Below are positions 494 through 16,544 of a stretch of DNA of 16,544 nt, one piece after another; the stretch's first letter is position 1; each line of letters begins with the position of its first letter. The translations under genes and the position numbers were made by a program. The notes below the pieces were generated by a model that was not told where the DNA came from, made no database searches, and saw only the letters and a program-made list of their open reading frames with translations. This DNA comes from a virus (lineage: Duplodnaviria; Heunggongvirae; Uroviricota; Caudoviricetes). The DNA lies in the IMG/VR virus record IMGVR_UViG_2695420569_000027; one strand, written 5' to 3'.

Positions 494-593
494 TGTACTG
501 ATGGGACGTCTGCGCAAAAAAATTCAGGCACAATATCCGCAAGAAGTGATTACTACCGTTCGCGGCCAGGGCTATTTGTTCGAATTGCGCTGA
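488..593 (+). pseudogene. phoP: phoP 3'-terminal remnant (last ~35 codons of the PhoP response regulator)
   Basis: Codons 501-590 translate to [30 protein letters not shown] followed by TGA. This is the OmpR-family winged-helix C-terminus of PhoP, and its stop overlaps the phoQ ATG (ATGA at 591-595) as in the native operon. No receiver domain is present upstream. Confidence 0.75.
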
Positions 594-2053
594 TGAAAAA
601 ATTACTGCGTCTTTTTTTCCCGCTCTCACTGCGGGTACGTTTTCTGTTGGCAACGGCTGCGGTAGTACTGGTGCTTTCGCTTGCCTACGGAATGGTCGCG
701 CTGATCGGTTATAGCGTCAGTTTCGATAAAACTACGTTTCGGCTGTTACGTGGCGAGAGCAATCTGTTCTATACCCTTGCGAAGTGGGAAAACAATAAGT
801 TGCATGTCGAGTTACCCGAAAATATCGACAAGCAAAGCCCCACCATGACGCTAATTTATGATGAGAACGGGCAGCTTTTATGGGCGCAACGTGACGTGCC
901 CTGGCTGATGAAGATGATCCAGCCTGACTGGCTGAAATCGAATGGTTTTCATGAAATTGAAGCGGATGTTAACGATACCAGCCTCTTGCTGAGTGGAGAT
1001 CATTCGATACAGCAACAGTTGCAGGAAGTGCGGGAAGATGATGACGACGCGGAGATGACCCACTCGGTGGCAGTAAACGTCTACCCGGCAACATCGCGGA
1101 TGCCAAAATTAACCATTGTGGTGGTGGATACCATTCCGGTGGAGCTAAAAAGTTCCTATATGGTCTGGAGCTGGTTTATCTATGTGCTCTCAGCCAATCT
1201 GCTGTTAGTGATCCCGCTGCTGTGGGTCGCCGCCTGGTGGAGTTTACGCCCCATCGAAGCCCTGGCAAAAGAAGTCCGCGAACTGGAAGAACATAACCGC
1301 GAATTGCTCAATCCAGCCACAACGCGAGAACTGACCAGTCTGGTACGAAACCTGAACCGATTGTTAAAAAGTGAACGCGAACGTTACGACAAATACCGTA
1401 CGACGCTCACCGACCTGACCCATAGTCTGAAAACGCCACTGGCGGTGCTGCAAAGTACGCTGCGTTCTCTGCGTAGTGAAAAGATGAGCGTCAGTGATGC
1501 TGAGCCGGTAATGCTGGAGCAAATCAGCCGCATTTCACAGCAAATTGGCTACTACCTGCATCGTGCCAGTATGCGCGGCGGGACATTGCTCAGCCGCGAG
1601 CTGCATCCGGTCGCCCCACTGCTGGACAATCTCACCTCAGCGCTGAACAAAGTGTATCAACGCAAAGGGGTCAATATCTCTCTCGATATTTCGCCAGAGA
1701 TCAGCTTTGTCGGTGAGCAGAACGATTTTGTCGAGGTGATGGGCAACGTGCTGGATAATGCCTGTAAATATTGCCTCGAGTTTGTCGAAATTTCTGCAAG
1801 GCAAACCGACGAGCATCTCTATATTGTGGTCGAGGATGATGGCCCCGGTATTCCATTAAGCAAGCGAGAGGTCATTTTCGACCGTGGTCAACGGGTTGAT
1901 ACTTTACGCCCTGGGCAAGGTGTAGGGCTGGCGGTAGCCCGCGAAATCACCGAGCAATATGAGGGTAAAATCGTCGCCGGAGAGAGCATGCTGGGCGGTG
2001 CGCGGATGGAGGTGATTTTTAGTCGCCAGCATTCTGCGCCGAAAGATGAATAA
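593..2053 (+). CDS. phoQ: Sensor histidine kinase PhoQ
   Basis: 486-aa ORF with two transmembrane segments, a periplasmic acidic patch (EDDDDAE), a HAMP region, the H-box ([11 protein letters not shown]) and HATPase N/G boxes ([24 protein letters not shown]). It matches E. coli PhoQ essentially end to end. Confidence 0.97.
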
Positions 2054-2176
2054 ATATGTCCTTTTATCACCACACCAAGACAAGCCATTGATTTAATTAA
2101 ATAATCTTCACTGAAAAAAGTGCCAAAAATCGCAAATTGACTACACCATTAACTACACCGTTCGGTGCACCGTATG

Positions 2177-2202
2177 AAACAACGTGGAACAAATAGACAC
2201 AA
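2177..2202. repeat. Three GAACAA-type hexamers phased at 10 bp (site C), near the island's left end
   Basis: aaacaa at 2177, gaacaa at 2187, acacaa at 2197. The 15-mer aacaacgtggaacaa (2178-2192) is identical to 9642-9656. Confidence 0.35.
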
Positions 2203-9426: not shown

Positions 9427-9517
9427 AAAAAAAGTCCTGAAGTTAAGTAAGGAACTCCAGGACGCGGCAAACACTCAACCGTTTTTCATAAGGAAATCAG
9501 CAATCGCACCGATCGTT

Positions 9518-9640: not shown

Positions 9641-9666
9641 GAACAACGTGGAACAACCACGAACAA
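9641..9666. repeat. Three GAACAA hexamers at exact 10-bp phasing (site B), upstream of the capsid operon
   Basis: gaacaa at 9641, 9651 and 9661. 17 of 18 bases match the reverse complement of 15223-15240, and 15 of 15 match 2178-2192. Confidence 0.4.
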
Positions 9667-9684
9667 ATAATTTACAAAACATGA

Positions 9685-14761: not shown

Positions 14762-14950
14762 TTAATGAACTGCCTTGCAGCTATCCTTCCAGGCCAGAAC
14801 CTCGGATAAAGACCAGCCAACGGAACGACCGCCAAGTTTACGACGTGATGGGAATTGTCCGGCCTTTTCCAGGCGGTAGCGACACGTACGGCTAAGGCCG
14901 GTTAGTTTTTCGCATTCTTTTTCACGTATAAACCGATCAGTGCTTAACAC
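14762..14950 (-). CDS. alpA: AlpA-family transcriptional regulator / excisionase-like protein
   Basis: 62 aa; EKLTGLSRTCRYRLEKAGQFPSRRKLGGRSVGWSLSEVLAWK matches the AlpA (Phage_AlpA) winged-helix signature. GTG start with GGGGG upstream. Confidence 0.88.
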   Translation of the reverse strand: MLSTDRFIREKECEKLTGLSRTCRYRLEKAGQFPSRRKLGGRSVGWSLSEVLAWKDSCKAVH

Positions 14951-15222
14951 TATTGCCCCCTTTCGTTTCTTAAAGAGTCATCAGGTGTCTTATTGTGTCG
15001 TATTGTTCCCGCTAGAGTGATGAATGGCAAATACTGAGGATGTATGATTTACAGAAAATGAAAAAGTAAGAATAAAATCTTTTAAATTCATGTTAATACA
15101 AAGGCATAAAATATTGTTCCATGCCTTTTTTCTCGCTCTTTAAAGAGTGATTCGCTAGTGTATAAAAAACCAGTAACACATTAAAAATCAGCTACTTATA
15201 AATCCGTACGCTTTTTCGCCTC

Positions 15223-15275
15223 TTGTTCGTAGTTGTTCCACATTGTTGCTCATTGTTGCACGTTGTATCTGTTCG
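15223..15275. repeat. Five to six TTGTTC-type hexamers at exact 10-bp phasing (site A), in the int-alpA intergenic region
   Basis: ttgttc at 15223 and 15233, ttgttg at 15243 and 15253, ttgtat at 15263, tgttc at 15270. The first 18 bp are the reverse complement of site B with one mismatch. Confidence 0.45.
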
Positions 15276-15314
15276 CATATCCAGTATGCGCATACTGAAA
15301 AAACACGAAAAAAA

Positions 15315-16544
15315 TTATTTTCTTCTGGCTACTGGTAGCGTGGTTACGTTTTCATGTGTTCCCGCCAGTATCCCTAACCGCTCCGTCCACATATCCAGCG
15401 CATTGCGTTTCGCATCCAGATAACGGGAATGATTATAAACTCGCTGCATTCCTGGCATCTGGTGGCCTGTAAGCTGCTCCACGACATGCGGATCAACGCC
15501 TAAATCGTTCAGCATGGTTGTAAAGGTGCGCCGGATGTCATGCAGTGACCAGTGAGGGTGATTAAGCCTCCTGTGCGCTAATCTTCCATACTGCGATACG
15601 CTGGCCTCCTGTTTCACTTCCCCCAGCAATAAGCCCGTGTGCCTGTTCTGCTCCACCAGCTGCGTGATGAACGGCAGTATTGCTTCCGGTATAGGCCGGA
15701 ATATGGCTACCTTCGTTTTGCTGTGCTCCTTCGGAACGGTCCAGAGCATTTCGGTAAAATCCCACTCGCTGATCTCCGATAACCTCAGTTCTACCGTCCG
15801 GCATCCGAACACAATCAGGAGGCGGATTAACGCGATGTAGTAGGGGGAGAATATTTTTTTGTCCAGTGCCTGCAATAATTCGCCCAGTTCTTTGGTGCTT
15901 AAGACACGCTCGCTTATATCCGGTTTTTTCCCAACGTCCGCCACACTCATATCATCAAGAACGTTGCTGATTGCATAGCGCCGCCTCCGGCAGAACTTAA
16001 GCGCCTGTTTGCACGTCTGTAGCAAGAATCCGGCAGTAACAGGCGTTCGCTTTGCCACCTGGTCAAAACAGGCCAGCCAGTGCCGTAGCTCGCATTTATC
16101 CAGCGGCATAGCACCAATGTGCTGTATTACGTGATTATTAAGGCGCTTTTTCAGGGCGGCATAATCCACGCGGTTTTCCTTTGCGTACGACTCAAGCCAG
16201 TAGGTGAGCGCATCGCCAACCGTTACCGGCTTTAACGCTTCCTGTACGGTGTAATTAAGCTCATGACGTGGATTTTTCCCCTCTGCCAGCCATGCGCGAC
16301 ACTGGGCGGCTTTTTCCCTGGCTGATTTCAGGCTCAGATCAGGATAATTTCCCAGCTTAATGCGTTCCGGTGGTGCCCCCCTTCCCGTTCCGGCCCTGTA
16401 AGTGAAATACCAGGTTAAAAGGCCACTGGTTGAATGCCTGACGCTCAGGTTTCCACCGTCATTAAGAAAGGCTGTTTTTTGGGCGGGTGTGCCGTTGATT
16501 TTCCTCAGCTGTGTATCGCTCAGTTTGTTAAGTGCTCTGCTCAT
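15315..16544 (-). CDS. int: Tyrosine integrase, P4-type (N-terminal arm-binding domain)
   Basis: 409 aa; the start codon is the final three bases of the window. N-terminal arm-DNA-binding-like region (LSVRHSTSGLLTWYFTYR) and catalytic residues in the C-terminal half (HDIRRTF, then Y in VYNHSRYL). Confidence 0.93.
   Translation of the reverse strand: MSRALNKLSDTQLRKINGTPAQKTAFLNDGGNLSVRHSTSGLLTWYFTYRAGTGRGAPPERIKLGNYPDLSLKSAREKAAQCRAWLAEGKNPRHELNYTVQEALKPVTVGDALTYWLESYAKENRVDYAALKKRLNNHVIQHIGAMPLDKCELRHWLACFDQVAKRTPVTAGFLLQTCKQALKFCRRRRYAISNVLDDMSVADVGKKPDISERVLSTKELGELLQALDKKIFSPYYIALIRLLIVFGCRTVELRLSEISEWDFTEMLWTVPKEHSKTKVAIFRPIPEAILPFITQLVEQNRHTGLLLGEVKQEASVSQYGRLAHRRLNHPHWSLHDIRRTFTTMLNDLGVDPHVVEQLTGHQMPGMQRVYNHSRYLDAKRNALDMWTERLGILAGTHENVTTLPVARRK

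Follow-up and report, generated by a model that had tools for sequence, protein, structure and literature searches.

Six arrays of short direct repeats, distributed over both attachment-site arms, the region upstream of alpA and the region upstream of the capsid operon of a phage satellite of Escherichia coli, are probably (we put the probability at about 0.7) head-to-tail operators of the satellite's AlpA protein, which would serve as directionality factor at the arms, as autoregulator at the two arrays ahead of its own gene and as regulator of the capsid operon at the array that precedes it. Phage-inducible chromosomal islands (PICIs) of Gram-negative bacteria have AlpA as their master switch. 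The literature searched yielded neither AlpA footprints or EMSA in PICIs, nor hexamer arrays, nor AlpA operators, and it reports no DNA targets of AlpA; what is presented here is a candidate operator map of six arrays that have the core nnACAA and a 10-bp period in common. If the map is right, excision and the induction of alpA, and in capsid-forming islands the production of the satellite capsid as well, are tied together by a single protein of 62 residues. The map would also separate directionality-factor sites from integrase arm sites and assign a formerly ambiguous doubled attP motif to the integrase, that motif not being restricted to helper-embedded PICIs (HE-PICIs). The arrays, finally, are targets for reporter and mutational tests and for the engineering of widely transferred elements.

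The DNA analyzed (the window, in what follows) is a stretch of 16,544 nucleotides that is identified by its gene set as the capsid-forming satellite EcCIEDL933 of E. coli O157:H7, inserted between phoQ and roxA; its int-alpA region is 100% identical to E. coli O157:H7 chromosomes. The phoQ gene (593-2053, plus strand) is host DNA and every island gene is on the minus strand. Apart from int and alpA, the island encodes a RepA-type helicase, an SSB, a PerC-like protein and a set of late functions: an HK97-type capsid protein, protease, portal, connectors, HNH protein, TerS and TerL. The att core was located by comparing both junctions with the empty phoQ-roxA site of K-12, and its second copy lies beyond the window, ~175 bp upstream of the start of int. 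Since the core overlaps the phoQ stop codon (TAA, 2051-2053), insertion of the island regenerates the end of phoQ. A search against Rfam returned zero matches within the window. The landmarks referred to throughout are:

2052-2061, plus strand: identity block AAATATGTCC of the att core.
14762-14950, minus strand: alpA, 62 amino acids (Pfam PF05930, E = 5e-17).
15315-16544, minus strand: int, for a tyrosine integrase of the P4 type that has an arm-binding domain at its N terminus (Pfam PF13356, Arm-DNA-bind_3, and PF00589, Phage_integrase).

The arrays consist of 3-6 hexamers of the GAACAA type at an exact spacing of 10 bp. Four of them lie within the window; D and E lie beyond its right end and were read from the closely related strain FORC_042 (L001):

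15223-15268, minus strand: array A, five units (ATACAA, CAACAA, CAACAA, GAACAA, GAACAA; pattern nnACAA), between the int stop codon and alpA.
9641-9666, plus strand: array B, GAACAA three times; with its conserved A/T-rich flank ATAATTTACAAAA it spans 9641-9679.
2177-2202, plus strand: array C (AAACAA, GAACAA, ACACAA), on the att arm distal to int.
Outside the window, int-core interval, 87-122 bp from the core centre: array D (GCACAA, CTACAA, AAACAA, GAACAA).
Outside the window, int-core interval, 25-50 bp from the core centre: array E (GAACAA, AAACAT, AAACGG), weaker than D.
14983-15008, minus strand: array F, weak (GAACAA, ACACAA, ACACCT), overlapping the -10 and start region of a predicted alpA-proximal promoter.

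Arrays A, B and C had been picked out in the initial annotation of this DNA, at the positions at which they are found here; D and E, and the weak F, had been missed. Array A had been credited with 5 to 6 copies between 15223 and 15275; five of these are in phase, but the sixth, a GAACAG at 15269-15274, is only 6 bp from its neighbour and therefore out of phase. Array A extends 40-92 bp past the int stop codon and 273-318 bp ahead of the alpA start. Array B, ~215 bp ahead of the capsid ATG (9426), has the terminator of the PerC-like gene on one side and the capsid operon on the other, with TTGTTC on the capsid sense strand. Array C is 116-150 bp inside the att core (120-146 bp from the core centre). 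The inversion of A relative to B and C, already pointed out, is confirmed, and B is also opposite to A relative to the genes downstream. Two longer matches that had been adduced to show that the sites are one element are reproduced as well: an exact 15/15 match, AACAACGTGGAACAA, between C (2178-2192) and B (9642-9656), and a 17/18 match between TGGAACAACTACGAACAA (A, reverse complement) and TGGAACAACCACGAACAA (B).

The accompanying claim that the three sites are a single shared element and not a product of chance holds up: the window contains 3 phased runs, whereas 300 Markov shuffles gave a mean of 0.027 and a maximum of 1. On a weight-matrix scan for three consecutive units, the arrays score 24-31 against a shuffle 95th percentile of 17; array F, at 14.4, is at chance level taken alone. 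The same matrix, run over the island, detected no array besides those listed. No specific words other than those of the arrays recur in all of the alpA-upstream region, the two arms and the capsid-upstream region; three further words that the int-proximal arm has in common with the capsid-upstream region (CACCGATCGTT, TAAAATATG and TCCGGTCA) do not occur in collinear order and are shared at about the level that chance predicts. Between the int stop codon and array A (15282-15297) there is a perfect 16-bp palindrome, CAGTATGCGCATACTG; EcCICFT073-type islands have an extra hexamer unit at its place, and the islands with the second AlpA type, to be described below, have a different palindrome there.

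The alpA region is matched in 904 of 5,426 complete E. coli genomes. Relatives of the island were examined at five insertion sites (phoQ/roxA, tqsA, abgR/smrA, cspD-yljB and rcnR/thiM), together with 80 IMG/VR loci, and the arrays are kept in islands at all five sites. The 10-bp phasing is conserved in homologous islands: array A is found in all 59 distinct upstream regions of type-1 alpA (the allele of the window), always in alpA sense orientation, with 5 or 6 units exactly 10 bp apart and with a point mutation in a single unit in two of the 59. Among 36 distinct units, ACAA occupies unit positions 3-6 in 35-36, and the spacer positions hold only 0.2-0.3 bit. In L187, 336 bp upstream of alpA, array A has reached six units by duplication of exactly 10 bp (CAACAAtgag), so that a change of copy number can preserve phase. 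At the position of array F (about -68), a phased (A)CACAA array is found in all relatives, and each island of which the ends could be read has arrays C and D.

Array B behaves in the same way within the capsid-forming islands, in all 26 of whose distinct capsid-upstream regions it is present with its 13-bp A/T-rich flank, and with isolated single-base changes only. It is absent from the classical PICIs that were examined, those with the same AlpA and EcCICFT073 included; EcCICFT073 carries A, F, C and D. (Strain ZH063 encodes the same proteins as CFT073.) Gene content varies around persisting arrays: the replication initiator may be a RepA helicase or a primase-family protein, the neighbours of alpA differ, PerC is absent from the island L005 and TerS is absent from EcCICFT073-type islands, and the arrays are kept in each case. 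A scan of GTDB genomes with an AlpA alignment returned one close relative, the remainder being distant alphaproteobacterial proteins.

The case for AlpA as ligand of these arrays begins with what is known and predicted about the protein. In its AF2 model (pLDDT 86.5) the elements follow one another as beta-alpha-alpha-beta-beta-alpha, and among PDB structures Foldseek places the excisionase of GIsul2 (8c3t, TM 0.79-0.85) closest to that model, followed by RdfS (8dgl) and Pukovnik Xis; as modelled, AlpA is an excisionase-fold winged-helix protein. Direct repeats on one face of the helix fit the binding mode of excisionase-type winged-helix proteins, as had been argued from the sequence at the outset, and AlpA (PF05930, with the AF2 model and Foldseek matches just cited) has the fold. 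Searched by sequence against PDB chains at E <= 1, AlpA gave only 8c3t and two endoglucanases; no chain named as Pseudomonas aeruginosa AlpA is among them, nor is one among the top 50 fold matches of the AlpA model, in a copy of the PDB that may lack that chain.

The AlpA of the window is 94% identical to that of EcCICFT073 (L004; the same protein accession in CFT073), which activates its own promoter and leaves Pint unchanged (PMC6092414). Overexpressed without a helper phage, EcCICFT073 AlpA brings about int-dependent excision and replication (PMC6092414). Autoactivation and int-dependent excision together lead one to expect AlpA sites at its own promoter and at att. In EcCIEDL933 itself, mutation of alpA abolishes induction and transfer. 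The initial annotation had included int among the genes that the shared element might activate; that part is not supported, since array A is downstream of int and EcCICFT073 AlpA left Pint unchanged (PMC6092414).

AlpA and the arm-binding domain of the integrase had both been put forward as the binder. The comparison of islands favours the former and disfavours the latter, because the arms carry a second, doubled motif that follows the integrase while the hexamer arrays follow AlpA. Within the window that motif is found once:

2140-2159, plus strand: doubled motif ACTACACC-N4-ACTACACC, 12-bp period; proposed integrase arm-type sites.

Its second copy precedes int by ~25 bp and is thus beyond the window (L001 19214-19233); the two are ~140 bp (int-proximal arm) and ~93 bp (distal arm) from the core centre. 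In each arm a hexamer array starts 18 bp past the doubled motif, and this common offset makes motif and array a shared module of ~65 bp. Going outward from the core, one meets E, D and then the doubled motif on the int-proximal arm, but the doubled motif and then C on the distal arm.

The doubled motif differs by integrase clade: it is ACTACACC in the clade of the window, GACCACAC in L228 and L235 and TGTATTGC in HE-PICIs. L228 and L235 (the latter is the rcnR/thiM island) carry GACCACAC twice on both arms, and their Int differs from that of the window's clade in the beta-strand region of the arm domain. The doubled attP motif of HE-PICIs, tgTGTATTGCantgTGTATTGCa, has been described as a tandem pair with a 12-bp period and as unique to HE-PICIs, with its binder left open between Int and AlpA (PMC10111431). 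Its two co-oriented copies are ~81 and 132 bp from the attP centre, one of them just upstream of int (PMC10111431). The doubled ACTACACC motif resembles it in the 12-bp period and in the layout, with one copy just upstream of int, but is unlike it in sequence and is placed about one helical turn further from the core. The tgTGTATTGCantgTGTATTGCa motif is the counterpart of the companion motif ACTACACC and not of the hexamer arrays. In five HE-PICI loci, which were found via the doubled motif and have an int-alpA gap of only ~65 bp, a strict scan (at least 3 identical 5-mers at a 10- or 11-bp period) detected no att- or alpA-associated array; these loci, having no hexamer arrays, are not usable for array covariation.

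What can be used is a second AlpA allele (type 2, MREINEDRVIREKEC...), 60% identical to the type 1 of the window. Comparison of the window's AlpA with that of a type-2 island, L006, places differences in the recognition helix (SRTCRYRLEK vs CRTTRYEMEK) and in the wing (RRK vs RIS). The arrays differ with the allele, at the promoter and at the arms together: g-nnACAA with type 1 and cGAACnn with type 2. When matrices trained on the alpA-upstream arrays only were used to score the arm units, the mean log-likelihood ratio was +7.4 in type-1 islands (28 of 29 positive) and -1.5 in type-2 islands. As for the base that flanks a unit, G is found in 22 of 29 type-1 units and C in 21 of 22 type-2 units (p = 3e-7, a nominal value, the units not being phylogenetically independent). 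The type-2 arrays at site D are still mostly GAACAA, which makes the shift of specificity a subtle one.

Two dissociations bear on which protein goes with which site. The window and L006 have the ACTACACC motif in common while their AlpA proteins are 60% identical, and their arrays differ accordingly; the shift of the arrays with AlpA type holds in L006 and in L128, both still of the ACTACACC integrase clade. Conversely, L006 and L228 encode what is, but for one substitution, the same AlpA; their integrases differ, and so do their doubled motifs. Pairing Int with the doubled motif and AlpA with the arrays fits both dissociations, and the reverse pairing fits neither. The integrase arm domain and not AlpA binding the doubled motif is part of the best reading, and is covered jointly with AlpA on the arrays by the probability given at the outset. 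A small number of independent lineages underlie the covariation, namely two types of AlpA and three clades of integrase, and attP, int and alpA are physically linked as one module, so that co-inheritance contributes to it. The combination of a type-1 AlpA with the GACCACAC integrase clade was sought, and the sole candidate, strain ST130, has a type-2-like AlpA. L128, from strain A34, has a further peculiarity: its int-proximal island arm (29735-29800) has the ACTACACC doubled motif, and ~14 kb away, near thiM and among pseudogenes and an IS1 fragment, there is a GACCACAC-type arm with an array (~15230-15320). This has the look of a composite, or of what remains of two islands in tandem whose integrases were not the same.

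It is in the light of these comparisons that we consider it unlikely that the arrays are themselves arm-type sites for the N-terminal domain of Int, which would then also bind ahead of alpA and of the capsid operon. The arrays do lie on both arms, flanking the core as arm-type sites would, and Int does have an Arm-DNA-bind_3 domain; adjacent P' sites of phage lambda are, moreover, also about one helical turn apart. Against this, the separate doubled motif already offers four half-sites for an Int tetramer on the two arms and changes with the integrase clade, while the arrays follow the AlpA type and are unchanged across integrase clades. The units, of which the arms have no fewer than 10 and the remaining sites no fewer than 11, are also more than a tetramer could use, and the arrays are not confined to att: the internal sites A, F and B are without a recombination role.

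Another factor might occupy the arrays, with AlpA acting elsewhere: a helper-phage protein (the inducer of alpA, or a phage Xis or Cox) or a host nucleoid protein. Helper phages do switch on alpA transcription through a phage factor (PMC6092414), and among the conserved elements upstream of alpA it is array A that stands out most. The motif of the arrays shifts with the AlpA allele at promoter and arms, however, which would not be expected of a host factor or of a factor common to lambda, phi80 and HK97-like helpers, and EcCICFT073 AlpA alone, with no helper present, gives autoactivation and excision (PMC6092414). We give this explanation about the same small chance as the last one.

How AlpA would act from these sites depends on the promoters and leader elements next to them, which are the following:

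15002-15030, minus strand: predicted alpA-proximal sigma-70 promoter (TTGCCA, 17-bp spacer, AACAAT) from a consensus scan; TTGCCA and the spacing are conserved in relatives.
15159-15191, minus strand: conserved block CTGATT...TTTTATACA, from alignment; a candidate distal promoter, P1.
15100-15128, minus strand: conserved hairpin, with a stem of 12 bp in the window, a preceding A-run and T's after it, between the candidate distal promoter and alpA.
9427-9463, minus strand: hairpin with an 11-bp stem and U7, ending directly ahead of the capsid ATG.

The conserved TGATTTT block that is a candidate for P1 follows the last unit of array A at a distance of 32-34 bp (43 bp in one island), and this near-constancy is compatible with a phase-dependent relation. 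The hairpin that follows the block may serve to attenuate transcription, or a short leader RNA may end there. Two copies of a direct repeat, (C/G)ACTCTTTAA(A/G)A, precede alpA on the minus strand, one past the candidate distal promoter (15137-15149) and one just ahead of the alpA ribosome-binding site (14965-14979), and both are conserved in relatives. Near array B, a consensus scan detected no sigma-70 promoter. The hairpin ahead of the capsid gene folds at -16.6 kcal/mol (z = -4.5) and may function as an intrinsic terminator or else by sequestering the Shine-Dalgarno sequence; most relatives keep a stem of at least 7 bp and a U-run before the capsid ATG, and three divergent capsid-forming islands lack it.

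In the mechanism that we propose, AlpA would bind head to tail, one protomer per helical turn. At the arms (C on one side, D and E on the other), the resulting filaments would act as recombination directionality factor for excision, those on D and E between the Int arm sites and the core, that on C beside the distal arm sites, and so would shape attL and attR. On array A, 5-6 protomers would line one face of the helix ~70-120 bp upstream of the start of the promoter-like block at 15159-15191, and this filament would account for the positive autoregulation of alpA. Array F, which lies over the proximal promoter, could limit or tune the loop. In capsid-forming islands, array B would place the capsid and packaging operon under AlpA: activation of the packaging operon through B, as first suggested for these repeats, is plausible, and AlpA action at B is the weakest and least secure step of the scheme.

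Several observations sit less comfortably with these proposals. Directionality-factor sites on both arms, with C outside the distal arm-type site, are an unusual arrangement. D and E lie between the core and int, and yet EcCICFT073 AlpA left Pint unchanged. B is inverted relative to A and has no consensus promoter near it, and classical PICIs with the same AlpA lack it. A further mode of action, in which AlpA is loaded at the arrays and RNA polymerase then reads through the hairpins that follow, so that the late operon is controlled by antitermination, would resemble lambda PR'-tR' or the P. aeruginosa alp operon. The presence of terminator-like hairpins after both A and B leaves room for read-through control of this kind; as an antiterminator loading site, however, array A is not placed between -35 and -10, and we think the idea improbable.

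Only some of the sites may be functional. It is conceivable that B, and perhaps C, are inert copies of the att-arm module that were acquired with the capsid module, or, in a variant of the same idea, that the arrays confer intrinsic DNA curvature only. The 15/15 match of B with C, its arm orientation and its arm number of units all point in that direction, and classical PICIs manage without B. It is hard to reconcile with the near base-for-base preservation of B and its 13-bp flank in 26 distinct contexts, in three of which the sequence on both sides is wholly unrelated; in L127, genes have been inserted upstream, after the PerC-like gene, and B remains beside the capsid operon. Nor does B have beside it any doubled motif or core-like block beyond words at chance level. 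We rate inert copies slightly below the other alternatives already judged unlikely. Origin iterons (the nearest array is ~1.5 kb from the rep gene, and the same arrays accompany a RepA helicase or a primase), cos/pac sites of the small terminase (no array is near terS, and A, C and D are present in EcCICFT073-type islands without TerS) and sites for the PerC regulator (excluded by distribution and gene content) were considered and rejected.

The closest parallels are with the directionality factors of temperate phages, satellites and integrative elements, proteins that bind head to tail on tandem repeats spaced by one helical turn, put a bend into att DNA and assist Int in assembling the excisive complex (PMC7498355; PMC11963761). 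Apl, Cox and Vis also regulate promoters far from att through like arrays (PMC7498355). The operators of 186 Apl, a small helix-turn-helix protein that binds cooperatively and head to tail, are 6 bp long and directly repeated every 10-11 bp; attP has five of them and the pR-pL switch has seven (PMC7498355). The island arrays resemble those of 186 Apl, and of the Cox proteins of P2 and W-phi, in having direct repeats at one-turn spacing with one set at att and a larger set at a distant promoter region (in the island, a predicted one), the numbers being 3-4 units per arm array and 5-6 upstream of alpA as compared with the five and seven of Apl. They differ in that the main effect of Apl and Cox is repression, at lytic and lysogenic promoters that face each other, while that of PICI AlpA on its own promoter is activation, and in that the island has arrays on both att arms and before the capsid and packaging operon. 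In fold, AlpA groups with the excisionases of the Xis/MerR type; Apl, for its part, stands apart in sequence from other directionality factors.

With P4 Vis, AlpA has in common that it is encoded beside a P4-type integrase in a satellite; Vis has been called a remote relative of the PICI AlpA proteins, with a role that is described as different (PMC6092414). RdfS of ICEMlSymR7A, a winged-helix factor and a structural neighbour of the AlpA model (8dgl), binds attP and its own promoter and so coordinates excision with expression (PMC11963761). Its sites have no recognisable consensus and it oligomerises through an extra N-terminal helix (PMC11963761), in contrast to the sharply defined phased hexamers of the island. 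Lambda Xis provides the most familiar geometry, with three head-to-tail protomers about one turn apart on X1-X1.5-X2 beside an Int arm-type site, where they bend the arm and aid Int (PMC7498355); it does so on a single arm and is not known as an activator of distant operons, unlike what is proposed for the island arrays. The island has what is found in dual-purpose directionality-factor systems: repeats at one-turn spacing, an array beside arm-type sites, a winged-helix factor encoded near int, and covariation of the repeats with the allele of that factor. Repeats are also found at promoter regions away from att (A and F upstream of alpA, B upstream of the capsid operon), those promoters being predicted only. 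Judged by these likenesses, the arrays are the same kind of system as the operators of 186 Apl, P2 Cox and P4 Vis, with cooperative binding predicted here.
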